Assembly (NCBI RefSeq): GCF_012927455.1
Contig: NZ_JABBPE010000003.1
Coordinates: forward strand, 18,970 to 82,969
Source of the DNA: Polaromonas sp.
Lineage (GTDB): Bacteria > Pseudomonadota > Gammaproteobacteria > Burkholderiales > Burkholderiaceae_C
Direction of reading: 5' to 3'
DNA length: 64,000 nucleotides
Under the pieces are notes generated by a model. It saw only the letters and a list, made by a program, of their open reading frames with translations, was not told where the DNA came from and did not search any database. The translations under genes were made by a program, and so were the position numbers. This document shows, in pieces, positions 361-57,441 of this stretch (its first letter is position 1; each line of letters opens with the position of its first letter).

Positions 361-410
361 TTGCTATTATTTTGATAGCTGTTAGCGCCCGTATCTATTG
401 GGCTACAGCC
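361..410 (+). repeat. GCTAT-N7-ATAGC interspersed repeat, copy 1
   Basis: GCTAT-TATTTTG-ATAGC-TGTTAGCGCCCGTATCTATTGGGCTACAGCC. Confidence 0.85.
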
Positions 411-17402: not shown

Positions 17403-17464
17403 CTAGAACCACAATTTCGTTGAGTATTGCCTTACCCTCAAGTCGCAGCTACCCGGAGATCTGC

Positions 17465-20400: not shown

Positions 20401-20854
20401 CATCGAGGAGCTGACCGAACTGGTCGAAGAAGCCGTGCTGATCGAATTCCAGAACATCGCCGATCGCGGCGGCGTGCTGGGCGCGATGGAAACCGGCTAC
20501 CAGCGCGGTCGTATCCAGGACGAATCGATGCATTACGAAATGCTCAAGCACACCGGCGAGCTGCCCATCATCGGCGTCAACACCTTCCGTAACCCGCATG
20601 GCGACGCGGTTCACGACAAGCTGGAACTGGCGCGCTCGACTGATGAAGAAAAGCAGAGCCAGCTGACGCGGCTGGCCGACTTCCAGCAGCGCCACGCCAA
20701 AGAGTCACCGGCGATGCTCAAACGCCTGCAGACGGCGGTGATCGAGAACAACAACGTGTTCGAAGTGCTGATGGACGCGGTGCGCGTCTGCTCGTTGGGG
20801 CAGATCACCAACGCGCTGTTTGAAGTGGGCGGGCAGTACCGCCGCAATATGTAA
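17465..20854 (+). CDS. icmF: Fused isobutyryl-CoA mutase / MeaB-like GTPase
   Basis: B12-binding [10 protein letters not shown]-loop [36 protein letters not shown], and mutase barrel motifs [13 protein letters not shown] and [16 protein letters not shown] before ATG 17465. Confidence 0.95.
18032..18081 (-). repeat. GCTAT-N7-ATAGC repeat copy inside the icmF reading frame
   Basis: Reverse complement reads GGTAT-CTTTTTG-ATAGC-AGCTTGCGCCCGTACCGCTTGGACTACAGCCTC, matching the intergenic copies. Encodes [16 protein letters not shown] just before the P-loop. Confidence 0.8.
18278..18375 (+). repeat. GC-rich palindromic element inserted in frame in icmF
   Basis: CCCCCACGCTTGTCGCTTCGCG...GCCCCCCGAGGGGGC...GCTTGGGGCGGCCCGGCGCTGCG; perfect hairpin GCCCCC-CGA-GGGGGC. 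Encodes [30 protein letters not shown] between MNAINPW and [10 protein letters not shown]. Confidence 0.65.
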
Positions 20855-20910
20855 AAAGGCGAAACGCATGGGCCTAAAATATTCCCTTATTCATTAGGGA
20901 AGAATTAACG

Positions 20911-21576
20911 ATGGCAATGCGAAATTCAGTGGCACTGGCCACTTTGCTGGTGTCAATGTTTGTCGCTTTTCCGGCCATCTGCCAGCCCGTCAAAGCCATT
21001 CCGGCAGCAAGCCTGGACCTGGCTGCGCGCCTGCAAGAGGAGGAAAGCCATCCGGGTCAACGCGAGGCAGCCTACAAGGCCGGCGGCAAGGTCGCGGCTT
21101 TCTGCGCCAACTGTCATGGCGAGGGCGGCAACAGCAACAATGCCGCCATTCCCAACCTGGCAGGGCAGAACCCCACGTATTTGCTGGAGCAGCTGCGCCA
21201 ATTCAGCGATGGGAGCCGCCGCAACGAGTTCATGGAGCGAATGATCAAGGCTCTCAGCCCCGCCGAAAAAATCGGTATCGTTGTTTTCTATTCCAGCCAG
21301 GAAGTCACGCACAAGCCATCGGCGAACGCCGCACTGGTCGGCCAGGGATTGGCGTACTACAACAATGTTTGTGCGCGTTGCCATGGCGCGCAGGGTCGCG
21401 GAAATGCGAAAGTCGCACGAGTCGCCGGACAGCAGCCAGACTATCTGAACGTGACGCTCAAGCGCTACCGGGACGGTTCAGGTGTGCGCAACGAGCCCCT
21501 GATGGCGGCCAATACGCGGCTGATGACAGACGCCGATATCGCCGCCGTCGTTGCCTACGTCTCGTCCATGAAATAG
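20911..21576 (+). CDS. Diheme cytochrome c4/c553
   Basis: Signal peptide, two CxxCH motifs (CANCH, CARCH), PNLAGQ...YLLEQL, ARVAGQQPDYL. Confidence 0.9.
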   Translation: MAMRNSVALATLLVSMFVAFPAICQPVKAIPAASLDLAARLQEEESHPGQREAAYKAGGKVAAFCANCHGEGGNSNNAAIPNLAGQNPTYLLEQLRQFSDGSRRNEFMERMIKALSPAEKIGIVVFYSSQEVTHKPSANAALVGQGLAYYNNVCARCHGAQGRGNAKVARVAGQQPDYLNVTLKRYRDGSGVRNEPLMAANTRLMTDADIAAVVAYVSSMK

Positions 21577-23052: not shown

Positions 23053-23100
23053 GCTACTGTTTTAATAGCTGCTTGCGCCTGTATTTATTGGGCTAGACCC
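23053..23100 (+). repeat. GCTAT-N7-ATAGC repeat, copy 4
   Basis: GCTAC-TGTTTTA-ATAGC-TGCTTGCGCCTGTATTTATTGGGCTAGACCC. Confidence 0.85.
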
Positions 23101-25770: not shown

Positions 25771-25820
25771 GCTATGTTTTTTATAGCTGACTGCGCCCGT
25801 AAAACATGGGCTAGAGGCTC
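25771..25820 (+). repeat. GCTAT-N7-ATAGC repeat, copy 5
   Basis: GCTAT-GTTTTTT-ATAGC-TGACTGCGCCCGTAAAACATGGGCTAGAGGCTC. Confidence 0.85.
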
Positions 25821-38740: not shown

Positions 38741-40564
38741 GTGGAAGATAAATCCATGTTTTTGTTCCGCCAGATAGTCCAGTTCGGGCTCTTGTTGATG
38801 GGTTCGGGTTTCTTATTTCAGCCGTCTATTGCCGACAGCGGCGATAAGGCGGTAGTACGCATTGGCGTGTTGGCCTATAGAGGTCCAGAGGCCGTACAGG
38901 AGGACTGGTCTGCTCTCAGAAACTGGCTTGACGCCGCTCTTCCGGACCGCCGTTTTATTCTGCTTGATTTCGATCAGTCCGGCCTGACGCGTGCAGTGCA
39001 TGACCAAGCCATTGACTTCGTCATCACCAGCAGCGGTCACTATGTCGCCCTCGAAGACAGCGAAGGCGCCAGCCGCATTGCCACCATCGATTCGCCCTGG
39101 GCTGTGTCACCGCGGAAATCGATTGGATCGACCATCGTGGTTCGTCGCGACGCACCGCTCCAGACGCTGGCCGATCTGGCCGGCAAGCATGTCATGGCGG
39201 TCGGACCGGATGCCTTCGGCGGTTACCAGATTGCCGCCGGTGAACTGCTGTGGGCAGGTGTCGATCCCGAGCGCGATCTGGGCCGCCTGCAGTTCACGGG
39301 TTTTCCGATTCAGAAAATCGTCCATGCGGTTCGCGCCGGCCAGGCCGATGCCGGCATCATTCGATCCTGCCTGCTGGAGCAGATGATCCGAAGCGGCGAA
39401 ATCGGCAAAGAAGAATTGCGCGTGCTGGCGCCCATCGCCACTCCAGGCATGAAGTGCCAAACATCATCAAAGCTTTATCCCGACTGGCCCTTCGTCACCT
39501 TGCATCAGACCCCGGCGGATTTATCCAAACGTGTCGCCATGGCTTTGCTGGCGATGCCCAACAGCGCCGAGGGCTATAGCTGGACAGTGCCCAGTGATTA
39601 CAAGGTGGTCGATGACTTGTTTCGGGAACTCAAAATCGGCCCCCATCGCTATCTGCGCGAATGGACTTTCGAGTGGCTCTTGCGGCGCTACTGGGGCTGG
39701 CTACTGCTGGCTCTGGCCCTGCTGGTGGTCTGGGCCGTCTACACCGTGCGGGTCGAACAGTTGGCAAGCCAGCATAGCCGCGCACTGCGCGCCGCACAGG
39801 AAGATCAGCGCCGCATGGCCGAGGAGGCACGCCTGCGCCAGGCCACGCTGGACCATACCGCGCGACTGGCCATTCTTGGTGAAATGGCCAGCGCGATTGC
39901 GCACGAATTGAACCAGCCGCTGGCGGCGATCGGCAACTTCGCCCAAGGCATGGCTAGGCGCATTGGCGCAGGACGACTGGAGCCGGAGGTATTGCTGGAA
40001 GGAACCGGTGAAATCGTCACGCAAAGCGAACGGGCTGCCAGCATCATTCGCAACATCCGCGCTTTTGCCCAAAAAAGACCGCCTGAACGGAAGTCGCTCG
40101 ACTTCAGCGCAGTCGTGGGTGAGACCATCGCCCTGTTCAGCGGTGCCCATCCGCAAGCGCGCCTGAGCTGGCAGCCCGCCGCCACACAGACACCAGCCAT
40201 CGTGATGGCCGACGCCTTGCAGCTTCAGCAGGTCATGATGAATCTGCTGAAAAACGCACTTGATGCGCAGCAGACTGCCGGTCATGCCCAGGCGCCCATC
40301 AAGCTGCAATTGCGAACCGATGACGGCGCCTGCCTGGTCACCGTCAGCGACGCCGGCTGCGGTCTTGCGCCCGAACAGTTTGCGCGCCTGTTCGAACCTT
40401 TTTTCACCACCAAACCCGATGGCCTGGGCCTGGGTTTGTCGCTGAGCAAAGGCATCATCGAATCGTTTGGGGGAACGCTGTCGGCCAGGCCCAATGATGG
40501 CCAGGCCGGGCTGACGGTTTGCATCAGCCTGCCACTGCAAGCGTTATCCTGCACTGCCGCTTAA
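38741..40564 (+). CDS. ttrS: Tetrathionate sensor histidine kinase TtrS-like
   Basis: Periplasmic PhnD-like domain (VRIGVLAYRG, AVGPDAFGGY, YPDWPF), one TM, H-box IAHELNQPL, NLLKNALDA, FFTTKPDGLGLGL. Alternative ATG at 38756. Confidence 0.85.
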   Translation: MEDKSMFLFRQIVQFGLLLMGSGFLFQPSIADSGDKAVVRIGVLAYRGPEAVQEDWSALRNWLDAALPDRRFILLDFDQSGLTRAVHDQAIDFVITSSGHYVALEDSEGASRIATIDSPWAVSPRKSIGSTIVVRRDAPLQTLADLAGKHVMAVGPDAFGGYQIAAGELLWAGVDPERDLGRLQFTGFPIQKIVHAVRAGQADAGIIRSCLLEQMIRSGEIGKEELRVLAPIATPGMKCQTSSKLYPDWPFVTLHQTPADLSKRVAMALLAMPNSAEGYSWTVPSDYKVVDDLFRELKIGPHRYLREWTFEWLLRRYWGWLLLALALLVVWAVYTVRVEQLASQHSRALRAAQEDQRRMAEEARLRQATLDHTARLAILGEMASAIAHELNQPLAAIGNFAQGMARRIGAGRLEPEVLLEGTGEIVTQSERAASIIRNIRAFAQKRPPERKSLDFSAVVGETIALFSGAHPQARLSWQPAATQTPAIVMADALQLQQVMMNLLKNALDAQQTAGHAQAPIKLQLRTDDGACLVTVSDAGCGLAPEQFARLFEPFFTTKPDGLGLGLSLSKGIIESFGGTLSARPNDGQAGLTVCISLPLQALSCTAA

Positions 40565-40666
40565 AGTTTGACAGCTAAAAAATCTCTTAATGAAAACACT
40601 TTTCTCTGACTTCCAACCTACTCACTTTTGGGCTCAAGGCACCGCTTACCCCGTGCGGTTTGCAGC

Positions 40667-41335
40667 ATGACAGCTCAGCCTATAAACGCACGCGATGCCA
40701 TGCTTTTTGTCGTTGACGACGATGCGGCCATGCGCCGCTCGCTGGCCTACCTGTTTGATTCAGCAGGCTGGCGCGTCGCGTCTTTCGAGTCGGCGCATGA
40801 CTTTCTTGACCGCTACGACGGACATGTGCCGGGGTGCCTGGTGCTTGACGTGCGCATGCCGCTGATGAGCGGGCTGGAACTGCAGCAAGCGCTCAAGAAT
40901 CGTGCTATCAGCTTGCCCATCATCTTTCTGACCGGCCACGGCGATCTGGCGATGGCGGTACAGGCGATGAAAACAGGCGCCTGCGACTTCCTCGAAAAAC
41001 CCTGCAAGGACCAGGTGTTGCTCGATGCGGTGACACGCGCGGTGCAGCGCAACATCAGGGACTGCGAGGCAAACACCCAATGTCACACGGCCCAGGCGGC
41101 ACTAGCTGCCCTAACGACACGCGAGCGCGAGGTGGCGGAACTGCTGGCGCTTGGCAAACCCAACAAGATTATTGCCCGCGAACTTGGAATCAGCGAAAAA
41201 ACGGTCCAGGTGCATCGCCACAACACCATGGAAAAACTCGGCATCCATTCGGCAGCGGAAATCACCCGTTTGCTGATGGCATCAAAGACGGCGCCAGCCG
41301 ATTCACATCAGGAACCGCCCGGTCAAGCTGCATAG
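40667..41335 (+). CDS. ttrR: FixJ/TtrR-type response regulator
   Basis: VVDDD, LDVRMPLMSG, FLTGHG, FLEKP and a LuxR-type HTH (LTTREREV...SEKTVQVHR). Confidence 0.85.
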   Translation: MTAQPINARDAMLFVVDDDAAMRRSLAYLFDSAGWRVASFESAHDFLDRYDGHVPGCLVLDVRMPLMSGLELQQALKNRAISLPIIFLTGHGDLAMAVQAMKTGACDFLEKPCKDQVLLDAVTRAVQRNIRDCEANTQCHTAQAALAALTTREREVAELLALGKPNKIIARELGISEKTVQVHRHNTMEKLGIHSAAEITRLLMASKTAPADSHQEPPGQAA

Positions 41336-41337
41336 CC

Positions 41338-42153
41338 TTATCGAGGCTGCGTGCGCAAGCGATTCAATTTACTCGCCAGCGAAGCAGCCGATAGCTCGCC
41401 CAGGTGGGTATCCACCAGCCTTCCGCCGGCGTCATAGAACAAGGTGGTTGGCAAGGACCCGGAGCCGACCTCGCGGCCAATGCCGGAAGAAGCATCGAGC
41501 AAGACATTGGCAAGGTCGAGCCGATCGGCGGCCAGATACTTCTGCGCGGTGGCTGCGGCTTCACCCTGATTGATAAACACAAAACTCACCCCGGTTTCCC
41601 GCTTTTGCGCGGCAGCGAGCACCGGCATTTCGCGCCGGCACGGCGGGCACCAGGTGGCCCAGAGGTTGACGACCATCGGCTTCCCGGCAGCCAGCACGGC
41701 AAGCTGGGTTGGCGCACCGGCCAGCGTCGTCAACGCCTGTTGGGGCAGCGCCGGTTGTTGCGTCAGACTTTGCCCCACGAACATCGCGCCGCCCCAGACC
41801 AGCGTGCCGGCCACCAGTCCCGAGGCCAGCGGCTTACGCAGTGCGGGCCGGCGCCAGCCACGCCAGAGAGCCAGCAGCAGCGCCGCGCCGATTCCGGCCC
41901 AGGGTGTGAAACCGCCATCCCGGATATCGAGCATGGACCAGGGCGCGCTGCGGTAAGTGTCGAACCAGATGACGATGAAAGCCAGGCGCGCCACCAGCGC
42001 AGCGGCAATCACCATGTCACTCAAGGTATTGCCCAAGCCCGTCGGCTGGCCGCGCCCGGCCAGCTTGCCCACCCATGCCGCCACCAAGAATGCCAGCGCC
42101 ATCAGCAGCAAGTTAACCGACACCGCCAGCGGGCCCAGATTCACGGTCAGCAT
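41338..42153 (-). CDS. Membrane-anchored TlpA-family disulfide reductase with an Lgt-like N-terminus
   Basis: Four TM helices (ARLAFIVIW..Y...PWSMLDIRDGGF), then WATWCPPCRREMP and LPTTLFYD. Confidence 0.85.
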   Translation of the reverse strand: MLTVNLGPLAVSVNLLLMALAFLVAAWVGKLAGRGQPTGLGNTLSDMVIAAALVARLAFIVIWFDTYRSAPWSMLDIRDGGFTPWAGIGAALLLALWRGWRRPALRKPLASGLVAGTLVWGGAMFVGQSLTQQPALPQQALTTLAGAPTQLAVLAAGKPMVVNLWATWCPPCRREMPVLAAAQKRETGVSFVFINQGEAAATAQKYLAADRLDLANVLLDASSGIGREVGSGSLPTTLFYDAGGRLVDTHLGELSAASLASKLNRLRTQPR

Positions 42154-42315
42154 ATTCCGACTCCTGACAACAGCATGGCAACTGCCGGCAGTCGCTGCAC
42201 GGTCTGTCCATGCGCCACCCAATCGGCTATCGCACCGGGCAGCAAGTTCTTATTGATTCGCATAGTGGCTTCCTGTTGGCTTGCAAAATTGGCTCCAGAG
42301 TAACCTGCCATGCGC

Positions 42316-42346
42316 AAAAGCCCAGGCGGGGCAGATCCGCCTGGGC
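42316..42346 (-). terminator. Terminator after the sulfurtransferase gene
   Basis: Stem GCCCAGGCGG/CCGCCTGGGC with AAAA on the plus-strand 5' side. Confidence 0.6.
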
Positions 42347-42410
42347 GCGCGAAGGGGAAGGCTGCTAACGCGGTCACACGGTAAACGTTACCGCACTTGC
42401 TGCGGCTATG

Positions 42411-43388
42411 CTATTGCCGCGCAACCGACTCGAGCGCCCGCTTTTCCAGCGTCCACTGATGCATGGAGCCGTCATACAGGCGCGCCTGCTTGTTGCCGAG
42501 AATCTCTGACAGCACAAACCAGTTGCCGGCGGCCAGGCTGCCGGTATTGCAATAAGTAATTACGGGGGCTTGCGGATCGACGCCGCTGGCCTTGTAGACA
42601 TTGCGGTAAGTCGCCAGGGAAAGCATGCGGGTCGCAGCGCCATCGGTCGTCAGCAATTCCGAGGAAACGTTTTTGGCGCCCGGAATATGACCATAGCCCG
42701 ACACCATGTCTTTTTTGCTCAGCCCCAGATACTGGGAAGTGATGCGCGCATCCACCAGCTGCACGCTCTTGCCGGCAAGCGCTTTTTCAACATCTTCCGA
42801 AGTTGCCACCATCTGTGCGCGCTCAGGCTTGGCCACCCAGTTGCCCTCAAGCACTTTGGACGGTGCCGTAGTAAGGTCACGGCCTTCGGCAAGCCACGCC
42901 GCTGTACCGCCGTTGACGATGGCAATGTTGTCTTCGCCATACACCTTGAATTGCCAGTACAGACGGGCCGCCTCATTCAAGTCGGAAGGATGCTGACCTG
43001 CCGCCACGATCACGACCGGACGGCCCTGCTGCACCCCCCATTGGCGTGCCAGCTTTTCAAAGTCGGCGCGCTGCGGCAGCATGAACTTGACCTTGAGCGC
43101 CCCGATGACGCGCTCGACTCGCACGCTGGCGTTATCAACTGGCGCGGCATCCTGAATGTGGCCGCCAAGTTCGCGCAGCACCTTTTTGCCACTCTTCTTG
43201 TCGGTCTCAAACTGCGCTGTCGTCAGAAAGGTCTTCTGATCCGGACGAACATCGAGCACCGTGACTTCGGCCTTGTTGCTGGCCAGCCATTCGCCATCCA
43301 CCACGGGACCTGGTACCTGCAAGGCCCAGCCCCATTGGGCGACGCAAAGCAGGGCAGCGCCCGTCATGTACTTCATCGGCATTTTCAT
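42411..43388 (-). CDS. Exported tandem-domain rhodanese (sulfurtransferase)
   Basis: Signal-peptide-like N-terminus, LDVRP, VDAR, GHIPGAKN, active-site loop YCNTGSLA, YDGSMHQW. Confidence 0.85.
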   Translation of the reverse strand: MKMPMKYMTGAALLCVAQWGWALQVPGPVVDGEWLASNKAEVTVLDVRPDQKTFLTTAQFETDKKSGKKVLRELGGHIQDAAPVDNASVRVERVIGALKVKFMLPQRADFEKLARQWGVQQGRPVVIVAAGQHPSDLNEAARLYWQFKVYGEDNIAIVNGGTAAWLAEGRDLTTAPSKVLEGNWVAKPERAQMVATSEDVEKALAGKSVQLVDARITSQYLGLSKKDMVSGYGHIPGAKNVSSELLTTDGAATRMLSLATYRNVYKASGVDPQAPVITYCNTGSLAAGNWFVLSEILGNKQARLYDGSMHQWTLEKRALESVARQ

Positions 43389-43499
43389 CTTGATTCCTTC
43401 AGTGATGTTGATTTGGAACCTGGGCTTGCAGATACAAGCGCGTCTGGCAGCCTCTTATGTCGGTTATGTCCGCTACGTCCGCTCTGTCCGCAATGTCCA

Positions 43500-46400
43500 T
43501 CAGGCCCGCACCAGCCTTGCCGGCAAGCCCTGCCGCACCGTGCTGCCCGCCACCGGATCGACAAACACATTGCGTCCGTTGCGCGTCGGGTCGCTCAATC
43601 CGAGATCGTTGAGATTGATGCCAGCGCCTATCGCCGCTTCGTGCGGTTGCGCTCTGTCGCCGATGCGGTGCGAGCGCGCACCGAGTTCGCGATGGCCAAA
43701 GCCGTGTTCCACCGCCACCACGCCGCGCTGCACGCCGTGGCGCAGCAGCACGGTCGCCCTGGCGCGGCCTCCCGGGGTTTCGAGATAGACCTGGTCGCCG
43801 CTGCGCAGGTCCAGCCCGGCCGCATCGTCCGGATGCAGCGCCACCGGGTTGTCCGGATGGATGCCGCGCAAGCGCCGCGCGCCAATACTGTAGGAGTTTT
43901 GCAGCGGCGATTTGTAGCTGATCAATTGCAGCGGCCATTGCGCCTCGGGGTAGTGGCTGCGCACCAGAGTCCCATCCGCGAAAGCCGGTTGCTGCCAGGT
44001 CGGACTGCCCGAAAAGCGCTTGCCACTCAAGCTGCTTTTGCTGGTGCCGACATTTTCGTTGTACAGCATCATGGGTTTGGTGAAGCGGTACGTGGACCAG
44101 TCTGACGGATAAGGCGCTTCTTCCTGCGCTGCAGCAACGACAGCGCCCACGGCCAACGGTAGCCTCATGCCGAACATTTCCTGCAAGCTTTGATAACGCC
44201 CTCCCCGCGCCAGCATAAACGCCACCTTGCGCCACTCTTCGGGCTTGAGGGTTTTTTCCAGCTGGGGTCGAATGCGGCTCACGCCCGACAGCAAGAGATC
44301 GTCGTCGCTCGCGTCAGGCACCGGCGCCTTGCCCTGCCACGCAATATTGGCACCGCCGCGCAGGTACCAGTCTTCGGGCCGTTCCAGCGCGCAGGGCTCG
44401 CCGCTGCTGTCGGTCAGCCCGGCCGCGCCGAAGCCGGGCAGGGCCAGGGCCTTGGCCAGCGCCAGGAAGAAAGTTTCCATGCCGATAGCCTGGCCGTCGG
44501 CCAGCTTCTGGGCTTTGGGCTCGACCACTGGCCAGCGTGCCGTGCTCAGTTTGACGGCCACGCCAGCCCAGGCGCCGGCCCAGCCCCAACTTTCATACAT
44601 CAGCGAATCCGGAACGATGTAGTCGGCAAAAGCGTTGGTTTCGTTGGTGAACGGATCGACGGACACGATCAGTGGCAGCTTCTTCGGATCAGCCAGATCC
44701 TTTTCAATCTGGGCGCGCAGCCCGGTGATGCCGTAGAGCGGATTGCAGCTCCACAGGATCAGCGCCTTGAGCGAATACGGATAGCCATTGACGGCGCTGC
44801 TCAGCCATTCAGATGCCAGGCCGGGCGCATTGGGGTACCACGGTGCTTGCGCCGGGTAGGCCTTGCCCCCGGCCTTTTTGCGCTTGAACTCGGCGGTTTT
44901 TTCGTAAGCAACGTTGCGTCCGAGCGGCATGCCGCCGGGCTTGACCGCGCCGGCAAAGCTTTCCAGGTTGTAGCGCGGCCCGTCGCCGGCATCTTTGAAG
45001 CTGCCACCGTTGACCAGCGTGCCGCCCTGGCGGTTCAGATTGCCGATCAGGGTGTTGAGCATGAGCAGCGCGTAGGCATTGTAAAAGCCGCTGCCGGCCA
45101 TCATGCCGCCATGCGCACTGAGCGCGGCGCGCTTGCCGTGGCTGGTGAATTCGCGCGCCAGCCCCTCGATGACGGGCACGGGAATGCCGCAGGCAGCCGA
45201 ATAATCGGCCAGGCTGTGCTTGAAGGACTGGTCGCGCAACAGGCTCATCGCGCTTTGCAGCTTCAGCGTTTCGCTGCCGATTTGCAGCGCGCCGTCAAAA
45301 AACAGTTCCGCCTTGGCTTTGGCATCGGTGTGAATGACGGCTTGTTGCGCCGCGAGATCGAAGACGACGAAAGGATCCTTTTCCTGGTAGCGCTCTTCTT
45401 CGGCCAAAGCCATGCCGAGATCCGAGCCACGCAGGTAGCGGCCATCGCGCGCATGACCGGGCTGCACGATCACCAGGTGGGTGGCGTTGCTCCAGCTCGC
45501 CTCGCCGGCGGCCTCGGCCGCCTTCAAGTTGGGCTGAACCAGATAGTGCCGGTCATAGCGTTCCTGCTCGATGATCCAGCGGATCATCGCCATCGCCAGC
45601 GCGCTGTCGGTGCCCGGCTTGATCGGCACCCAGCGGCTGCGCTCGGCTGAAGCCAGGCTGTCGGCGTGGCTCAGCACCGGATCGACCACCACGTAGCTGA
45701 ATTGGCTGTTGCCCGCGCGCGCCTTGGCCAGCAGCGTGCCTTGCCGCTTGAACGGGTTGCCGGCATTGCCGGGCGCGGTGCCGACAAAGATGCAGAACTC
45801 GACATGCTCCAGGTCCGGCTTGGCATGCGGCATTTTCTTCATGTCGCCGAACATTGCGCCCGAACCGCTGCGGTAGGCGCCGCCGCAGTAGGACCCATGG
45901 CCCACCATGTTCAGGCTGCCGTAAGACTGTTTGAAGAAACGCTCGACAAAGGGCTCGCGGCCCTCGTTGGTGCTCGACATCAGGCCGACCTGGTTGACCC
46001 TGGGGCCAAGTTCGGGTTGCTGCGCATCGATCGGCGTTTGCAGGTCGCGCAAGGCGCGCAAACCCTGCACCTCGCCTTCACCGAACAAATTGCCGCCTTC
46101 GACGATCTCCTTGACCAGCTGGTCGAACGCGATCGGCTGCCACTGGCCGCTGCCGCGCGGGCCGACACGCTTCATCGGCGCCAGCACGCGAAAGGGCGAA
46201 TCCATTTGCTCCAGCACGCCGTTGCCGCGCCCGCAGGCGGTCGAGCGGCCTTTCAGTCCTTTTTCCTGGTAGCGCGTGAGCGAGACAAAGCTGCCCCTGA
46301 TCGAGGTCTGAAAAGGCAGCGGCGGATCAGCTGACAGCGGGCTGTACGGGTTACCGGCCACGCGCAGTACCTTGCCGCCTTTTTTATCAATGCGCACCCG

Positions 46401-46658
46401 CACACCGCAAAAGGTGGTGCAGCCCATGCACATCGTGTAGCTGACCTGCTGCTCCGGGTTGATGCGCAAGGCGCCGGTGGCCGGATTGACGCTGAACTCG
46501 GGCACCAGCGAATTGCCGTGCAGGCGCTGCTGAGGCTTGTCCTTGCCGAGCACATGATCAAGCATGCGCCCTGCCGTTGTCGAGGCGCCGGCGGCAAAGG
46601 CCGTGAGGCCGCCGCCAATGGCAGCCTTGCGTAAAAATGAACGCCGTTTGTCTTCCAT
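43500..46658 (-). CDS. ttrA: Tetrathionate reductase catalytic subunit A (Mo-bisPGD, 4Fe-4S)
   Basis: Tat motif KRRSFLR, CMGCTTFCGVRVR, NPYSPLS, STACGRG, HGSYCG, C-terminal GVVAVEHGFGH. Follows ttrB and ttrC. Confidence 0.92.
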   Translation of the reverse strand: MEDKRRSFLRKAAIGGGLTAFAAGASTTAGRMLDHVLGKDKPQQRLHGNSLVPEFSVNPATGALRINPEQQVSYTMCMGCTTFCGVRVRIDKKGGKVLRVAGNPYSPLSADPPLPFQTSIRGSFVSLTRYQEKGLKGRSTACGRGNGVLEQMDSPFRVLAPMKRVGPRGSGQWQPIAFDQLVKEIVEGGNLFGEGEVQGLRALRDLQTPIDAQQPELGPRVNQVGLMSSTNEGREPFVERFFKQSYGSLNMVGHGSYCGGAYRSGSGAMFGDMKKMPHAKPDLEHVEFCIFVGTAPGNAGNPFKRQGTLLAKARAGNSQFSYVVVDPVLSHADSLASAERSRWVPIKPGTDSALAMAMIRWIIEQERYDRHYLVQPNLKAAEAAGEASWSNATHLVIVQPGHARDGRYLRGSDLGMALAEEERYQEKDPFVVFDLAAQQAVIHTDAKAKAELFFDGALQIGSETLKLQSAMSLLRDQSFKHSLADYSAACGIPVPVIEGLAREFTSHGKRAALSAHGGMMAGSGFYNAYALLMLNTLIGNLNRQGGTLVNGGSFKDAGDGPRYNLESFAGAVKPGGMPLGRNVAYEKTAEFKRKKAGGKAYPAQAPWYPNAPGLASEWLSSAVNGYPYSLKALILWSCNPLYGITGLRAQIEKDLADPKKLPLIVSVDPFTNETNAFADYIVPDSLMYESWGWAGAWAGVAVKLSTARWPVVEPKAQKLADGQAIGMETFFLALAKALALPGFGAAGLTDSSGEPCALERPEDWYLRGGANIAWQGKAPVPDASDDDLLLSGVSRIRPQLEKTLKPEEWRKVAFMLARGGRYQSLQEMFGMRLPLAVGAVVAAAQEEAPYPSDWSTYRFTKPMMLYNENVGTSKSSLSGKRFSGSPTWQQPAFADGTLVRSHYPEAQWPLQLISYKSPLQNSYSIGARRLRGIHPDNPVALHPDDAAGLDLRSGDQVYLETPGGRARATVLLRHGVQRGVVAVEHGFGHRELGARSHRIGDRAQPHEAAIGAGINLNDLGLSDPTRNGRNVFVDPVAGSTVRQGLPARLVRA

Positions 46659-46668
46659 GAATAACCCC

Positions 46669-47748
46669 TTAGTGCTCAGCCATCGCGCTATCGGGGAGCG
46701 CACTGGCTGGCTGAGTTTTGCGGCTGGCAACGCTGTCAAAGGCCGGCCCGGCCCATGGCAGGTAATCAATCATCAAGATCAGCAATGCGATCCATAAACC
46801 AAAGGTGCCGACGATGCCGAGCAGGCCGTCGCTGCCCAGCGGCAGCTGGTAGTCGTACAGGCCTGCGCCGGTTTTAGGAATGTCCTGGCCGCCGATGAGG
46901 ATGGTCCAGCGCATCATCCAGGCACTGTGCACGGCAATCAGACCGGTCATCAGGCCGCTGCTAGCCGGGCGCCAGATCGCCAGCGCCATCGGCAGGATGC
47001 TTGCCAGCACCGCCCACACCGCCGTGAGCTGCCAACGCGGCAGGCCGGCCACCTGATTCAGGGCGGCGCTGTGCGAGGGGCTGAGGCCGGACAGGCTGAC
47101 GAACAGCCAGCTTCCGCCCAGCGTCAGCACCGCCGCCAGCGCGAGCACCAGCAGGCGGCTCAAACTGATTTCCAGCTGCCTGTCGTGGCGGCCAATCAAG
47201 CGGTTGAACAGCAGCAGCAAGCCGACGGCGCCGACAAAGGCCGTCGCGGCAAACTGCAGGGGCAGAAAAGGCGTGTTCCACAGCGGCCGCGCTTGCACCA
47301 CCATCACCTCCATGCCGGTATACAGCGCCACCAGCACGGCGCCTGCCAGCGTCAGCAGCGCCGCGGCGGCGAGGGCCGGCCGCCTGGCCGGGCCGCCGCG
47401 CAGCGCCAGCCACGCATACAGCATCAGGCCGCCGAGATACACCGGAATAAAAAAGGAGCCCCACGACATCCACGATTGCGGCTGGAAATACAGGTAGAAA
47501 TAATAAAACCGCCCCGGACCGTGCAGGTCGGCCAGCAAGGCCACCGGCGCTGTCAGTCCGCAAACCAGCGCGCCGAGCAGCGCCAAACGGCCCTGTCTCT
47601 CATGCTGGGCGCGACCGAAAACAAAATACGGCAGCGTCAGCATGAAGCTGCCATAGCTCAGCCCGATCAGGAAAAAGTACTGCACGGCCCACGGCAACCA
47701 GGCGGCGCCGCTGGTCACGTTGAACACTTCGATGATTTGACTGTTCAT
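46669..47748 (-). CDS. ttrC: Tetrathionate reductase membrane anchor (NrfD family)
   Basis: WLPWAVQYFFLIG, LADLHGPGRF, SWMSWGSFF, ALYTGME, RWTILIGGQ; multi-TM. Confidence 0.9.
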   Translation of the reverse strand: MNSQIIEVFNVTSGAAWLPWAVQYFFLIGLSYGSFMLTLPYFVFGRAQHERQGRLALLGALVCGLTAPVALLADLHGPGRFYYFYLYFQPQSWMSWGSFFIPVYLGGLMLYAWLALRGGPARRPALAAAALLTLAGAVLVALYTGMEVMVVQARPLWNTPFLPLQFAATAFVGAVGLLLLFNRLIGRHDRQLEISLSRLLVLALAAVLTLGGSWLFVSLSGLSPSHSAALNQVAGLPRWQLTAVWAVLASILPMALAIWRPASSGLMTGLIAVHSAWMMRWTILIGGQDIPKTGAGLYDYQLPLGSDGLLGIVGTFGLWIALLILMIDYLPWAGPAFDSVASRKTQPASALPDSAMAEH

Positions 47749-47751
47749 GGT

Positions 47752-48462
47752 TCACGCTCCAGCATCGCTTGGTTGCCATAGAGTGCCTTCGCCCTCGACG
47801 CGGCCCTGAAAATGCGTTTCCAGTCCCAGGTAAAACACCTGCGGCTGCGATCCCATTTCCGGCTTCAGCACCTTGACCTTGTTTTGCTCAAGCAACTGGC
47901 GAACCTGGCTGCCCGCAGCGTTGAGGTCGCCAAAGATGCGCGCCCCGCCCACGCAGCTTTCAACACAGGCCGGTAGCAGTCCGGCATCGATCCGGTGGGC
48001 GCAAAACGTGCACTTGTCCGCCTTTCCGGTGTCGTGGTTGATGAAGCGCGCGTCGTAGGGGCAGGCCTGCACGCAGTAGGCGCAGCCCACGCAGCGATCG
48101 CCGTCAACCACCACGATGCCGTCGGCGCGCTGGAAAGTCGCGCCGACCGGGCAGACCGGAATGCAGGGCGGCTCCTCGCAGTGGTTGCACAGGCGCGGCA
48201 GCATGTAGGTGCCGGTATGCGCGCCGTCATGCACTTCGTAGGTGGAAACGAGGGTGCGAAAACGGTTTTCCGGCACGGCGTTCTCCATGATGCAGGCCAG
48301 CGTACAGGCTTGGCAGCCAATGCACTTTTGCAGGTCAACCACCATGGCCCAGCGCTGTTTTCCATCACCTGCTACGGCTTGCGCAGCGATGGCGGGAACC
48401 ATCGCCGCGCCGGCGCTGATGGCTGGCAGCACGCGTAAGAAGTTGCGTCGTGAGTGAATCAA
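47752..48462 (-). CDS. ttrB: Tetrathionate reductase Fe-S subunit B
   Basis: Tat motif SRRNFL and four cysteine clusters (CIGCQACTLAC, CNHCEEPPCIPVCP, CVGCAYCVQACP, KCTFC...ACVESC). Confidence 0.92.
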   Translation of the reverse strand: MIHSRRNFLRVLPAISAGAAMVPAIAAQAVAGDGKQRWAMVVDLQKCIGCQACTLACIMENAVPENRFRTLVSTYEVHDGAHTGTYMLPRLCNHCEEPPCIPVCPVGATFQRADGIVVVDGDRCVGCAYCVQACPYDARFINHDTGKADKCTFCAHRIDAGLLPACVESCVGGARIFGDLNAAGSQVRQLLEQNKVKVLKPEMGSQPQVFYLGLETHFQGRVEGEGTLWQPSDAGA

Positions 48463-48521
48463 TTGAAGCCCCTGGTGCTGATCGCTTCGCCGCCACCCCT
48501 GCCATCAAGGCAGCTGTAATT

Positions 48522-48570
48522 GCTATTAATTCAATAGCTGCCTGCGCCCGTCCTGATTGGGCTAGAGCCT
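48522..48570 (+). repeat. GCTAT-N7-ATAGC repeat, copy 7 (between tsdA and ttrB)
   Basis: GCTAT-TAATTCA-ATAGC-TGCCTGCGCCCGTCCTGATTGGGCTAGAGCC. Confidence 0.85.
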
Positions 48571-48601
48571 TATTTGATACATAAATTCGGCTCAAACCCG
48601 G

Positions 48602-49690
48602 TCAATAACCCCAATAGGCCTTGGCTTTCGCCAGCGCATCGGTGATCGGCTGGAACGGCCCGTACTTGTGCTGCGCCAGCGGGAACATCGGCGCAAAGCG
48701 CGGGTCATCGCTGGCCAGCCCGAGTCCATCGACGCGCGGCATGGTGTAGTCATAGGCGGCGTCCGGGGCTTTTGAAAACCAGTTCGGCACACCGGTCGGG
48801 CTGGTGCCGGTCCAGTCATTGACAAACCTGGCGTCAAACGGGCGGTCTTTCGACAGGATGTAGGCCGTGACGTCCCAGGCATCCTGCGGCGACATCCGCG
48901 TGCTCGGGTCCAGGCTGTTGACCTTGTCGTACGGCATGTTGCCATTGACCAGCGTTACCGCCGTGGCCAGCCGTCCCATGCCCGCCATCAGGCCAAAGCT
49001 GTTGGCGCCCCACAGCGCCGGGTAGCGGTAGCGCTTCTCGTCGTCGCGCCACACGCCCTGGCCATCTTCCTGGTGGCAACTCTGGCAGCTGTCCTTGTAA
49101 ATGGTGGCGCCGCGCTGCGGATTGGCGGCGGTGGTCAGCAGGGGCAGCTTGGGAAATTCCTGGCCTGGCACCTGCTTGTAGGTGTAGCCCGCTTGCAGGC
49201 CGGTCGACAGAAAGCCGAAGTAGGCAACGATGTCCTGCATCGCCGGGCTGCCTGTGGGCAGCGCCTCGCCGGCCAGCGAGCGCTCGAAGCAGCCGTTGAT
49301 GCGCGCGGGCAGGTCACGTTTTATGTTCTCCCGCGCACTGAAGGCGCCGGGCGCCGCGTATTTGTAGGTACCCACTACCCAGGGTGAGGCGTTGGGACGC
49401 GTGCCATCGTCCAAGTGACAGTTGGCGCATGACAGACGGTTGCCGACGTAGGGCTTGCCATTGGCGGCGCGCTGGGTGCTCTCGGCGCCCAGGTACTTGT
49501 AAGTGCTGTGGATGAGTTCCTTGCCCCGAGTGGCTGACGCGTTCATCGTGGCCGGATCAGGCAGCTTGTACGACGGAGCGTAAAAGGCGTTGAAATCCCC
49601 GGGGTCGGTGCCGCTGCCCGCCAGCACTGGGCCGGACGCGGCCATGGACGCCGCCAGGACTGTTAACAGCAGATATTGACGTGTTTTCAT
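48602..49690 (-). CDS. tsdA: TsdA-like diheme cytochrome c, divergent paralogue
   Basis: GNRLSCANCH, catalytic-type RINGCFERSLAG, CQSCH, YPALWGANSF..AGM, NMPY. AAGGA RBS supports the start at 49690. Confidence 0.78.
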   Translation of the reverse strand: MKTRQYLLLTVLAASMAASGPVLAGSGTDPGDFNAFYAPSYKLPDPATMNASATRGKELIHSTYKYLGAESTQRAANGKPYVGNRLSCANCHLDDGTRPNASPWVVGTYKYAAPGAFSARENIKRDLPARINGCFERSLAGEALPTGSPAMQDIVAYFGFLSTGLQAGYTYKQVPGQEFPKLPLLTTAANPQRGATIYKDSCQSCHQEDGQGVWRDDEKRYRYPALWGANSFGLMAGMGRLATAVTLVNGNMPYDKVNSLDPSTRMSPQDAWDVTAYILSKDRPFDARFVNDWTGTSPTGVPNWFSKAPDAAYDYTMPRVDGLGLASDDPRFAPMFPLAQHKYGPFQPITDALAKAKAYWGY

Positions 49691-49828
49691 AACAAGGTTC
49701 CTTCTGAGAGACTGTTCGACTTTGCGAAAAGCGCTTGACAAATTGGCGCTGGCCAAGGGCCTGGGCCAGCCGGCCAGCGCGCCCCGTAAGACGCGATGGC
49801 CTGGCGGCCTGAAGCGCGCGCTACGGCG

Positions 49829-50860
49829 TCATTTGGCCGGAGACACGCCTTTTTCACGCGCTGCCTGAATCGGCTGCCACGGGCCATACTTGTGCTGCTC
49901 GGCCGAAAAGCCCGGCGTGTAGGGCGGGAACGCCGCATCGACCGGCTTGTTCTTGCGCGCCGGAAAATCCGCCACGGTATTGGCCTTGACCGGGCGCGGC
50001 TGGCTGTTGATGAAAGCGGCGACGTCGAAGGCCTGCTCATCGGTCAGCACCGCGTTCAGGTGCGTGATGCCGCTGGGCATGTTGCCCTTGATGAAGCCGG
50101 CGGCAAGCGTGATGCGTGCCATACCAGCGCCGTCGTTGTAGCTGTCGGCGCCCCAGAGCGGTGGAAATTGGTAGCCGTTGGCATCGCCGGCCTTGCCGCG
50201 CCGCACGCCCTGGCCGTTCTCGCCATGGCAGGCCACGCAGGTGCTTGCATAGACTTGCTTTCCAGCCACCGGGTCGGCTGCGCGTGCCAGCGCTTTAAGC
50301 TTGAGCGTGCCGCCGCCTTCCAGCTTGACGCCAACCGGCAGGCCGGTCGACAAGAAGTGCAGGTAGGACATGATCGCCTTCATCTCGGCACTGTCCAGCG
50401 GCAGTTTTTTGCCGTTCATGCTGCGTTCCATGCAGCCGTTGACGCGCTCCTCGGTGGTCGAAACCGCGTCTTCGCGGCCGCGGTACTGCGGAAAGCTGAC
50501 AAAGGTGCCGACCCAGGGGTTGCCGAACTTGCGCCCGCCCGCGTCCATGTGGCACGAGACACAGCCCAGGTTGTTGCCGGCGTAGCGCTTGCTCACGTCC
50601 TTCACCTCCGGGCCGATGTGCTTGTAGGTTTCTTCCATCAGGGCCTTGCCCTGGCGCACCGACTGGCCGTACTTGTCGTCGGGCAGTTTGCTGATGTCGG
50701 GCGCTTGCCAGTCTTTCTGGACTGGCGCGGCTGCGGCTGGTACAGCGGGTGTGGCGGCAGCCGCCGGTGCAGCAACAACGGCGGGGCTTTGCGCCAAGGC
50801 GTTCACCGTCAAGCCTGCGCCTACGGCCAATGCCATGATCAATCTGTGTGTGTGTTTCAT
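49829..50860 (-). CDS. tsdA: TsdA thiosulfate dehydrogenase / tetrathionate reductase (diheme cytochrome c)
   Basis: Signal peptide, GNNLGCVSCH, FPQYRGR, RVNGCMERSMNG, CVACH, PPLWGADSYNDGAGM, NMP. Confidence 0.88.
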   Translation of the reverse strand: MKHTHRLIMALAVGAGLTVNALAQSPAVVAAPAAAATPAVPAAAAPVQKDWQAPDISKLPDDKYGQSVRQGKALMEETYKHIGPEVKDVSKRYAGNNLGCVSCHMDAGGRKFGNPWVGTFVSFPQYRGREDAVSTTEERVNGCMERSMNGKKLPLDSAEMKAIMSYLHFLSTGLPVGVKLEGGGTLKLKALARAADPVAGKQVYASTCVACHGENGQGVRRGKAGDANGYQFPPLWGADSYNDGAGMARITLAAGFIKGNMPSGITHLNAVLTDEQAFDVAAFINSQPRPVKANTVADFPARKNKPVDAAFPPYTPGFSAEQHKYGPWQPIQAAREKGVSPAK

Positions 50861-51087
50861 TTCAAATTCCTGTTTGCTGCAAGTTAGGCCTGAGGGCTTA
50901 CATGCATCCTAGGAGCGAAGGGGTCTTGAAGCTATTGGATGTTTGCGGCGGTCGCCTATACAAAGTTGCCAATTTACACAGAGTGGAATTTGTGGCAGGC
51001 AGTAGCTAGCCATGCAGCTGCGCGCAGGCCTGCGCGCCACAAGACTGCTGAGCGGCTTCCCAGAAGTGGCTCTCCAGCAGAACTTTT

Positions 51088-51136
51088 GCTATGTTTTTCA
51101 TAGCTACTTACGCCCGTATTTATTGGGTTATAGCCA
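51088..51136 (+). repeat. GCTAT-N7-ATAGC repeat, copy 8
   Basis: GCTAT-GTTTTTC-ATAGC-TACTTACGCCCGTATTTATTGGGTTATAGCC. Confidence 0.85.
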
Positions 51137-57393: not shown

Positions 57394-57441
57394 GCTATTT
57401 ATTTTATAGCTGCTTATGCCCGTGTATGTTGGGCCATGGCC
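57394..57441 (+). repeat. GCTAT-N7-ATAGC repeat, copy 11 (between convergent DASS and tcuB)
   Basis: GCTAT-TTATTTT-ATAGC-TGCTTATGCCCGTGTATGTTGGGCCATGGCC. Confidence 0.85.

Follow-up and report, generated by a model that had tools for sequence, protein, structure and literature searches.

A TsdA cytochrome gene pair behind a conserved ttr promoter element in Polaromonas sp., a candidate second route of tetrathionate reduction

The tetrathionate sensor of Vibrio parahaemolyticus is the two-component system TtrSR, which directly activates ttrRS, ttrBCA, and the tsdBA genes next to them (PMC11293645, 2024). There, TsdBA oxidizes thiosulfate to the inducer, and TtrBCA reduces both tetrathionate and thiosulfate (PMC11293645). 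Both systems are likewise found in Shewanella sp. ANA-3, whose TsdBA does not contribute to the reduction of tetrathionate under anoxic conditions; the strains that respire tetrathionate by means of TsdA carry tsdA without tsdB (PMC12949373). The statement in the initial annotation of the locus described here, that TsdA and Ttr are usually alternatives in different organisms, is therefore outdated, given the ttrRS-ttrBCA-tsdBA cluster of Vibrio (PMC11293645) and the joint presence of the two systems in ANA-3 (PMC12949373). TsdA enzymes are reversible, and that of Campylobacter jejuni is bifunctional and is used as a tetrathionate reductase (PMC5146829). Within Polaromonas itself, all Ttr subunits of Polaromonas sp. 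Eur3 1.2.1 are transcribed, with levels raised at 0 °C (PMC6080646), so that the occurrence of Ttr in a lineage regarded as aerobic, which the same annotation had singled out, was already on record. The present analysis concerns a ttr locus in a 64,000-nucleotide (nt) stretch of Polaromonas sp. DNA (contig NZ_JABBPE010000003.1, positions 18,970 to 82,969; hereafter the window), in which two genes for TsdA-family cytochromes precede ttrBCA. The central idea, ttrBCA and tsd genes under TtrSR control, is already published in Vibrio, and the window presents a new layout of it. The reading favored here, with a probability of roughly 0.6, is that the TsdA pair forms the first two genes of a TtrSR-controlled ttr operon and serves mainly as a second tetrathionate reductase.

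The locus consists of the following features, in window coordinates (aa, amino acids):

P_ttr, 50861-51001, minus strand: promoter/leader element directly upstream of tsdA1
tsdA1, 50860-49829, minus strand: TsdA-family, putatively exported diheme cytochrome c of 343 aa, with a signal-like N terminus
tsdA1-tsdA2 spacer hairpin, 49745-49780, minus strand: GC-rich stem, then AATTTGT
tsdA2, 49690-48602, minus strand: second TsdA-family, putatively exported diheme cytochrome, ~362 aa, with a signal-like N terminus
tsdA2-ttrB spacer, 48463-48601, minus strand: 139 nt, with one copy of a dispersed repeat (core 48533-48568)
ttrB, 48462-47752, minus strand: four-cluster Fe-S subunit, TTG start
ttrC, 47748-46669, minus strand: NrfD-type quinol-oxidizing membrane anchor, 4-nt overlap with the ttrB stop
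ttrA, 46658-43500, minus strand: molybdopterin catalytic subunit of 1052 aa
rhodanese gene, 43388-42411, minus strand: exported two-domain protein of the thiosulfate/mercaptopyruvate sulfurtransferase family
tlpA-like gene, 42153-41338, minus strand: TlpA/ResA-like membrane-anchored periplasmic thiol:disulfide oxidoreductase, WCPPC motif
ttrR, 40628-41335, plus strand: FixJ/NarL-type response regulator, convergent with the operon
ttrS, 38741-40564, plus strand: sensor kinase with a periplasmic phosphonate-binding-type domain

All nine genes named by the initial annotation were located within 38741-50860 by the open reading frame (ORF) map and domain searches. The annotation had counted six co-oriented genes; these do share one strand, and because the tlpA-like gene lies on it too, the cluster comprises seven co-oriented genes on the minus strand, faced by a convergent ttrS-ttrR pair on the plus strand, as had been described. 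The reported lack of tsdB and sox genes in the cluster likewise held. The stop codons of ttrR (plus) and of the tlpA-like gene (minus) are 2 nt apart (41335-41338); no terminator-like structure was seen at this junction, so that the convergent transcripts would overlap.

The connection between the tsdA pair and ttrBCA is drawn by the DNA ahead of tsdA1. The ~135 nt directly upstream of this gene are homologous to an element that lies directly upstream of ttrB in ~40 related loci. The region aligns base by base, through to the start codon, with the ttrB-upstream regions of Sulfuricella, Polaromonas, Glaciimonas, Janthinobacterium, and Rugamonas (blastn, 72-77% identity, E values down to 2e-20). 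An nhmmer profile built from 12 ttrB-upstream regions only matches the 64-kb window just once (50868-51000, E = 9e-26). The same profile matches upstream of tsdA1 in loci L091, L093, and L094 upstream of tsdA2 in L098/L099 and L105/L106, and at the two L103 sites and one L104 site described below, none of which were used in building it. With a broader profile, the element, here termed P_ttr, was found once per locus before ttrB in ~40 loci. Conversely, by blastn and profile search the tsdA2-ttrB spacer contains neither a P_ttr copy nor anything that resembles a ttrB-upstream region; its blastn matches are confined to the dispersed repeat described below. The presence of P_ttr before tsdA1, together with its absence from this spacer, puts the tsdA pair between the ttr promoter and ttrB. 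From these alignments, we concluded that the pair was apparently inserted between the ttr promoter/leader and ttrB, and that it most likely constitutes the promoter-proximal part of the ttr operon, co-transcribed with ttrBCA.

Several positions of P_ttr are invariant. These include a candidate -10 hexamer, TAnnAT (TAGGAT at 50911-50906 in the window), and two inverted half-sites, A(A/T)ATTGG (AAATTGG at 50975-50969) and CCAATA(G/T) (CCAATAG at 50938-50932), the second of which overlaps the candidate -35 region; a small leader hairpin and the ribosome-binding region are conserved as well. Given its position and conservation and what is known from Salmonella and Vibrio, we infer that P_ttr is a TtrR-dependent promoter. 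The Vibrio ttrR box, GTGG-N4-CCAC, matches neither within 50861-51001 nor in the tsdA2-ttrB spacer, and its frequency throughout the window is near chance (48 found versus 38 expected). P_ttr provides a concrete candidate TtrR target for Betaproteobacteria, one distinct from the Vibrio box. No recognizable FNR box was present in the 21 promoter copies searched, and an Rfam scan of the whole window gave no match, hence no riboswitch or leader RNA family. Scans for consensus promoters and terminators between 38 and 52 kb performed at chance level and yielded no usable site.

To place this arrangement among related ones, all nine proteins were searched for in 80 loci, those with the closest TtrA matches among GTDB species representatives. 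The convergent ttrSR had been set against the divergent upstream ttrSR of Salmonella; among the Betaproteobacteria surveyed (Janthinobacterium, Rugamonas, Polaromonas, Sulfuricella, Rhodoferax, Thauera, and Azoarcus), a convergent ttrR-ttrS pair beyond the end of ttrA is the rule, whereas ttrSR is mostly upstream and co-oriented in the Alpha- and Gammaproteobacteria. Sulfuricella, Glaciimonas, and other loci likewise have a TlpA-like gene after ttrA, and the rhodanese gene is present in two of the 80. Six loci have a TsdA-like gene no more than 10 kb away, though not always in the same place; one of them is a Polaromonas metagenome-assembled genome with the order P_ttr-ttrBCA-tsdA1 (L006). None of the 80 loci carries the tsdA pair upstream of ttrB. 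The exact order tsdA1-tsdA2-ttrBCA is accordingly narrow in distribution, and yet it is not confined to the window: it recurs on two metagenome contigs, L092 and L093, with 86-95% protein identity, and a third (L094) carries the tsdA1-tsdA2 pair. Assembly chimerism was ruled out by the equal order in L092/L093 and by DNA sequencing runs spanning the junctions. Sequencing runs of sediment DNA contain matches of ≥95% identity along the whole stretch. The AMP nucleosidase encoded next to the cluster shares 88-92% identity with its counterparts in named Polaromonas species.

The relatives of this locus keep TsdA genes next to ttrSR in several orders. One close relative, L091 (AMP nucleosidase 98%, ADH 96%, and TtrS 91% identical), is syntenic with the window on both sides, where ADH, AMP nucleosidase, and pyridine nucleotide-disulfide oxidoreductase genes match, and its tsdA1-tsdA2 spacer is 76% conserved. 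L091 lacks the segment corresponding to window positions 41312-48520, that is, ttrBCA, the rhodanese gene, and tlpA, which leaves P_ttr-tsdA1-tsdA2 tail to tail with ttrR-ttrS; the difference ends in the repeat-containing spacer at one side and inside the 3' end of ttrR at the other. In L098/L099, the order is ttrS-ttrR-P_ttr-tsdA2, with no ttrBCA visible on the contigs, and in L105/L106 it is ttrS-ttrR-P_ttr-tsdA2-tsdA1, again with no ttrBCA visible, the contigs ending just after tsdA1. Other variants are tsdA2-tsdA1 convergent with ttrR-ttrS (L102) and ttrS-ttrR-tsdA2-tsdA1 facing ttrBCA (L103/L104). L103 contains two P_ttr copies (3350-3465 and 13573-13708), one before ttrB and one before tsdA2-tsdA1, the latter also present in L104. 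The paired copies of L103 parallel the two TtrR-dependent promoters of Vibrio. In L083/L092, a second pair, tsdA2'-tsdA1', follows the rhodanese gene and is in turn followed by dsbD-trx-tlpA-dsbC and then ttrR-ttrS. This makes four TsdA genes in one locus of a related lineage (L083 922-14500, L092 7211-9932); the dsbD-thioredoxin-tlpA-dsbC block suggests a periplasmic thiol-repair set tied to tetrathionate.

Overall, TtrS/TtrR adjoin TsdA2-type genes in 7 of the 10 distinct contexts examined. The three exceptions are Aromatoleum, where the gene stands alone, a locus with a different molybdoenzyme, and a locus beside a Crp/Fnr-type regulator. In the molybdoenzyme locus (L100 2692-15711, and L101), the TsdA2-type gene comes after the genes for an additional Fe-S protein and for the molybdoenzyme, which has only 30% identity to TtrA, and small rhodanese, moeA, SQR-like flavoprotein, dsrC, and dsrE-like genes are also present. 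In L098 (3363-7458) and L099 (3110-7205), tsdA2 is followed by a DsrE-family gene and then by a gene for a 693-aa fusion of a multiheme (MtrC-like) region with a TsdA domain. The linkage of tsdA to ttr that the initial annotation had proposed is thus borne out, in that P_ttr lies upstream of tsdA1 and not of ttrB and TsdA recurs by ttrSR behind P_ttr in several orders; both observations argue against independent regulation and against a strain-specific accident.

The two cytochromes themselves are clear members of the TsdA family. In a PDB sequence search, TsdA1 matched the Allochromatium vinosum TsdA structures with an E value of 6e-45, and TsdA2 matched solved TsdA structures with an E value of 8e-32. 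Each protein comprises Pfam PF21342 (SoxA-TsdA cytochrome) and PF00034 (cytochrome c) domains and two CxxCH heme-binding motifs, and the N termini read as hydrophobic and signal-like in the translations (MKHTHRLIMALAVGAGLTVNALA..., MKTRQYLLLTVLAASMAASGPVLA...). The two share 38% identity and are hence old paralogues. When residues are numbered as in A. vinosum TsdA on the basis of the PDB alignment, the columns of Cys96, Arg82, Arg92, Arg99, Ser100, Arg197, and the heme-2 Met209 hold the same residues in both TsdA1 and TsdA2. Across the TsdA2 subfamily alignment, all of these, as well as both CxxCH motifs, are present in 63 of 63 sequences, apart from Arg197, which is present in 62 (Gln in the other). 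Of these residues, we take Arg82, Arg92, Ser100, and Arg197 to have catalytic roles. As far as their residues tell, both proteins are catalytically complete, and with a full active-site set in each paralogue, neither resembles a mere electron carrier. The possibility that TsdA2 is a stand-in for TsdB was rejected because the catalytic Cys and Arg set is held subfamily-wide.

The paralogues differ at heme 2. The sixth ligand of heme 1 is a cysteine, Cys96 in A. vinosum and Cys138 in C. jejuni, and the heme-2 ligand is a methionine (PMC5146829). TsdA1 carries the Cys axial ligand in NGCMERS and a K-G-N-M heme-2 motif, and KGNMP is kept in 113 of its 120 closest homologues. The corresponding motif of the TsdA2 subfamily is [W/Y/N]-G-[T/N]-M, N-G-N-M in the window protein. 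Both proteins end in a C-terminal extension with a common motif, QHKYGP[WF]QPI, that is not found in A. vinosum TsdA. An exact-sequence look-up with the window TsdA1 found no record, and a metagenome contig scan with TsdA2 returned distant relatives only (31-39% identity). Among ORFs of at least 80 codons with two CxxCH motifs in the whole window, the sole one besides the tsdA pair encodes a c4-type diheme cytochrome c (20878-21573, plus strand; Pfam Cytochrom_C in two stretches), 28 kb off and unlinked, which is a possible redox partner of the TsdA proteins in place of TsdB.

The remaining proteins of the cluster fit a tetrathionate reductase system. The NCBIfam models for TtrA (1204 bits, positions 5-1021 of 1022; runner-up PhsA, 149 bits), TtrB (333 bits, positions 1-242 of 244), and TtrC (204 bits, full length) are the best matches of the respective proteins, with Pfam Fer4_11 also found in TtrB and NrfD in TtrC. 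None of the three reaches the NCBIfam equivalog cut-off (1750, 416, and 314 bits for TtrA, TtrB, and TtrC, respectively), and these cut-offs appear to be tuned to enterobacterial sequences; the assignment follows from best-hit status, full-length coverage, and the linked ttrSR. The translations show twin-arginine signals (SRRNFLR in TtrB and KRRSFLRK in TtrA) and an N-terminal Fe-S cluster motif, CX2CX3C...C, in TtrA; the latter shares 75-85% identity with its counterparts in Polaromonas, Sulfuricella, and Janthinobacterium loci. Subunit types, twin-arginine translocation (Tat) signal, Fe-S motif, and the ttrBCA order are all those of TtrABC. TtrS contains Pfam PF12974, HisKA, and HATPase_c domains and has NCBIfam TtrS as its best match (347 bits, positions 8-554 of 555, below cut-off). 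TtrR contains receiver and LuxR/GerE domains (NCBIfam FixJ, 220 bits, the best match, and TtrR, 163 bits, both below cut-off); its true start is probably the ATG at 40667, and the product is 71-83% identical to the regulator adjoining ttrBCA in related loci. This pairing of sensor and regulator architectures beside ttrBCA is that of TtrSR, and the pair adjoins ttrBCA in most of the 80 loci. The rhodanese has Pfam Rhodanese in two stretches, a signal-like N terminus, and an active-site loop, CNTGSLA; it matches PDB thiosulfate sulfurtransferases with an E value of 1e-22 and also follows ttrA in L009, L011, L083, and L092. The TlpA-like protein (Pfam Redoxin/AhpC-TSA/Thioredoxin; NCBIfam ResA/TlpA; LGT-like membrane N terminus) is encoded between ttrA and ttrR in L001, L003, L004, L005, L075, and L079, and after ttrA in L007, where ttrR was not detected.

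The system would operate as follows. TtrS would sense periplasmic tetrathionate and phosphorylate TtrR, as established for the family, and TtrR would activate the ttr promoter, whose location upstream of tsdA1 is observed. A single transcript would encompass tsdA1-tsdA2-ttrB-ttrC-ttrA-rhodanese and probably tlpA, in amounts that would fall past the hairpin and the repeat-containing spacers. TtrABC would reduce tetrathionate to thiosulfate with electrons from quinol, and TsdA1 and TsdA2, without TsdB, would tie the tetrathionate/thiosulfate couple to the c-type cytochrome pool. The best guess is that the pair would act mainly as a molybdenum (Mo)-independent, substrate-induced second tetrathionate reductase of the Campylobacter type; as TsdA is reversible, it could also re-oxidize thiosulfate while oxygen keeps the cytochrome pool oxidized. 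Family and location suggest that the rhodanese may act on sulfane sulfur or thiosulfate and that the TlpA-like protein may repair periplasmic thiols oxidized by tetrathionate. The reductive role appears slightly likelier in view of substrate induction, the modules without adjacent ttrBCA, the missing tsdB, and the C. jejuni-type heme-2 motif. A bolder version, tentative at best, holds that TsdA1 and TsdA2 jointly form a TsdB-independent, TtrSR-induced, Mo-free tetrathionate reductase that supplements TtrABC here and replaces it in the relatives with only P_ttr-tsdA1-tsdA2 and ttrSR. If true, this would amount to a widespread, unrecognized TtrSR-TsdA pathway of tetrathionate respiration in cold-environment Betaproteobacteria.

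The two spacers flanking tsdA2 contain structures that could shape such a transcript. The hairpin between tsdA1 and tsdA2 (49780-49745) appears in both the minimum free energy and the centroid folds, and it may be a partial terminator or an RNA-stabilizing stem; in both spacers, the RNA folds are no more stable than those of shuffled controls (z of -0.75 for the spacer with the hairpin). The tsdA2-ttrB junction contains, as annotated, one copy of a dispersed repetitive extragenic palindromic (REP)-like repeat. The repeat consists of TAGCCCA-N6-AC-GGCGC-N2-GCAGCTA followed by a short palindrome, GCTATT..AATAGC, and is intergenic; a pattern search of the window found seven copies, with 0 expected by chance:

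376-405, minus strand: repeat copy
18039-18068, plus strand: repeat copy
23066-23095, minus strand: repeat copy
25784-25813, minus strand: repeat copy
48535-48564, minus strand: repeat copy
51101-51130, minus strand: repeat copy
57407-57436, minus strand: repeat copy

Thus, one copy follows tsdA2 and another lies ~240 nt upstream of tsdA1. Judged by shape, the hairpin and the repeat are candidate transcript attenuators. Fragments of the repeat also turn up in contigs of ice metatranscriptomes.

Related expression data come only from such ice community metatranscriptomes, stored as contigs, and they contribute several of the observations that weigh against a TtrSR-induced, mainly reductive TsdA pair in one operon with ttrBCA. 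At ≥90% identity, RNA depth across four runs was 60-740 for tsdA1, 18-45 for tsdA2, and 1-10 for ttrBCA. This steep drop could reflect separate regulation, termination after tsdA, or a mixture with L091-like strains. The high expression of tsdA1-like genes in ice would fit an oxidative role in an aerobe, and in the only ttr-tsd cluster studied experimentally, that of Vibrio, Tsd oxidizes thiosulfate (PMC11293645). Furthermore, the 139-nt tsdA2-ttrB spacer may hold a promoter of its own, no RNA contig at ≥96% identity covers ttrB past its first 18 nt, and tsdA1-like DNA is 2-3 times as abundant as ttr DNA in sediment metagenomes. On the other hand, one RNA contig (98% identity) spans 48445-48754, that is, the whole tsdA2-ttrB spacer plus those first 18 nt. 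Many RNA contigs diverge at this spacer or at the variable N-terminal linker of TsdA1, which points to a strain mixture; strain divergence in the Ala/Pro-rich N-terminal region, at ~50717, also made the 5' end of the tsdA1 transcript unmappable from these contigs. With tsdA1-like DNA over-represented and strains mixed, the expression ratios are unassignable to one strain, and the depth gradient is compatible with polar decay along one transcript and, equally, with strains lacking ttrBCA.

The most serious rival to a reductive TsdA pair is a feed-forward circuit of the Vibrio type, close to the cycling idea of the initial annotation, in which TsdA1 and TsdA2 would be mainly thiosulfate dehydrogenases that pass electrons through c-type cytochromes to oxygen, and the tetrathionate they form would be both the inducer sensed by TtrS and the anoxic substrate of TtrABC. 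Polaromonas is an aerobic heterotroph of the kind that commonly oxidizes thiosulfate to tetrathionate, tsdA1-like transcripts are abundant in the ice metatranscriptomes, and the c4-type diheme cytochrome encoded in the window is a candidate electron acceptor. The mechanism has been demonstrated for V. parahaemolyticus tsdBA (PMC11293645), and the reversibility of TsdA (PMC5146829) would permit it. However, tsdB is not linked, and the heme-2 motif of TsdA1 is of the reductase-biased C. jejuni type, not the Lys-Met of A. vinosum. The logic of such a circuit would also be odd in the L091, L098, and L105 modules, which without visible ttrBCA would be induced by their product and have no consumer for it, and co-expression of the dehydrogenases with TtrABC from one promoter would short-circuit quinol to cytochrome c. 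An oxidative role is therefore somewhat less likely than a reductive one, and as a complete explanation the circuit is rather unlikely, yet it remains a serious contender. A sulfur store, with tetrathionate produced under oxic and respired under anoxic conditions, is possible.

Mere adjacency is a good deal less probable. Under this explanation, the tsdA pair would be regulated independently, ttrBCA would be expressed from an unrecognized promoter in the tsdA2-ttrB spacer, and the P_ttr-like sequence would be an insertion relic. The fall in RNA depth from tsdA1 through tsdA2 to ttrBCA is what it would predict, TsdA1- or TsdA2-type genes do stand alone in L081, L095-97, and L107, and the exact gene order is confined to a narrow lineage. 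A relic would nevertheless be hard to reconcile with an element before tsdA1 that keeps the invariant positions of the ttrB-upstream copies, and with the recurrence of P_ttr ahead of tsdA in five or more further architectures, every one of which has ttrSR or ttrBCA alongside. In addition, the spacer that would have to drive ttrBCA is unlike any ttrB-upstream region, and in L091 the ttrSR pair has only the tsdA pair as a possible target. Finally, it is very improbable that the paralogues are non-redundant, as a heterodimer with one replacing TsdB or as enzymes for different substrates, for example, other polythionates: in most contexts the two do lie together, whichever of them comes first (window, L091, L092-94, L083, L102, L103, and L105), with a systematic difference in the heme-2 motif and a shared C-terminal extension foreign to A. 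vinosum TsdA, but both members have the full active-site set, including the Cys ligand, and each type also occurs singly (L006, L081, L095, L100, and L107).

Elsewhere in the window, the gene at 17420-20854 (plus strand) encodes a 1144-aa IcmF-type fusion of B12-binding, MeaB-like GTPase, and methylmalonyl-CoA-mutase domains that is unrelated to the cluster. Long ORFs antisense to or out of frame with real genes, such as 49796-50887 (plus), 43399-44235 (minus), 42570-44105 (plus), and others, lack independent gene evidence and are probably chance ORFs of GC-rich DNA.

Pyrite weathering and cryptic sulfur cycling in sediments, glaciers, and permafrost both have tetrathionate and thiosulfate among their key intermediates. 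Should the TsdA pair belong to the TtrSR regulon, tsdA is an unsafe marker of thiosulfate oxidation in metagenomes for this clade, where it may instead signal tetrathionate respiration. Strains with TsdA plus Ttr, TsdA only, or Ttr only behind the same promoter offer a natural comparison of the cytochrome and molybdoenzyme routes, which bears on why both are retained for one reaction.

Compared with known systems, the locus combines familiar parts in an unfamiliar order. With the Vibrio circuit it shares TtrSR, TtrBCA, and a TsdA-family cytochrome in one cluster, two enzymes that would both act on the thiosulfate/tetrathionate couple, and, by comparative genomics only, the placement of tsd genes behind the same cis-element as ttrBCA (window, L091, L093, L098, L103, and L105). 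In Vibrio, however, tsdB lies beside tsdA, the tsd genes are downstream with their own promoter, and ttrSR is upstream; the window has two TsdA paralogues without tsdB, both encoded ahead of ttrB and preceded by the only copy of the ttr promoter, a convergent ttrSR downstream, and extra genes for an exported rhodanese and a TlpA-like protein. The Salmonella enterica ttr system has in common with the window the three-subunit enzyme, Tat signals, a TtrS sensor of the phosphonate-binding type, and a LuxR-type TtrR. It differs in that the window proteins score under the equivalog cut-offs for enterobacteria, the ttrSR pair faces ttrA from downstream, as in every betaproteobacterial locus surveyed, no FNR box is recognizable, and TsdA, rhodanese, and TlpA genes are added. 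The study of Polaromonas sp. Eur3 1.2.1, a member of the same genus, described neither tsdA in the operon nor the promoter arrangement (PMC6080646). Like the window proteins, C. jejuni TsdA has His/Cys ligation at heme 1, a Met-ligated heme 2, and no tsdB, and its Lys252-x-Asn254-Met255 corresponds to the K-x-N-M of TsdA1 (K-G-N-M) (PMC5146829); in the window, TsdA1 is instead paired with a divergent second TsdA, its gene forms part of a probable ttrBCA operon with a TtrSR-type system, and the host is presumably a ubiquinone-using aerobe. A. vinosum TsdA (PDB 4WQ7 and others) belongs to the same fold family by sequence and shares the heme-binding and active-site Arg, Ser, and Cys residues, but has Lys208-Met209 at heme 2 and is oxidation-biased, whereas the window TsdAs have Asn-Met. 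Unlike A. vinosum TsdA and the TsdB/TsdBA systems, the window TsdAs carry a C-terminal extension of ~50-70 residues and are not accompanied by TsdB. In the literature searched, the TsdB-less TsdA1/TsdA2 pair and its capture behind the ttr promoter appear undescribed, as do the TtrSR-P_ttr-TsdA modules without visible ttrBCA and the clade-specific promoter element that they share with the window.

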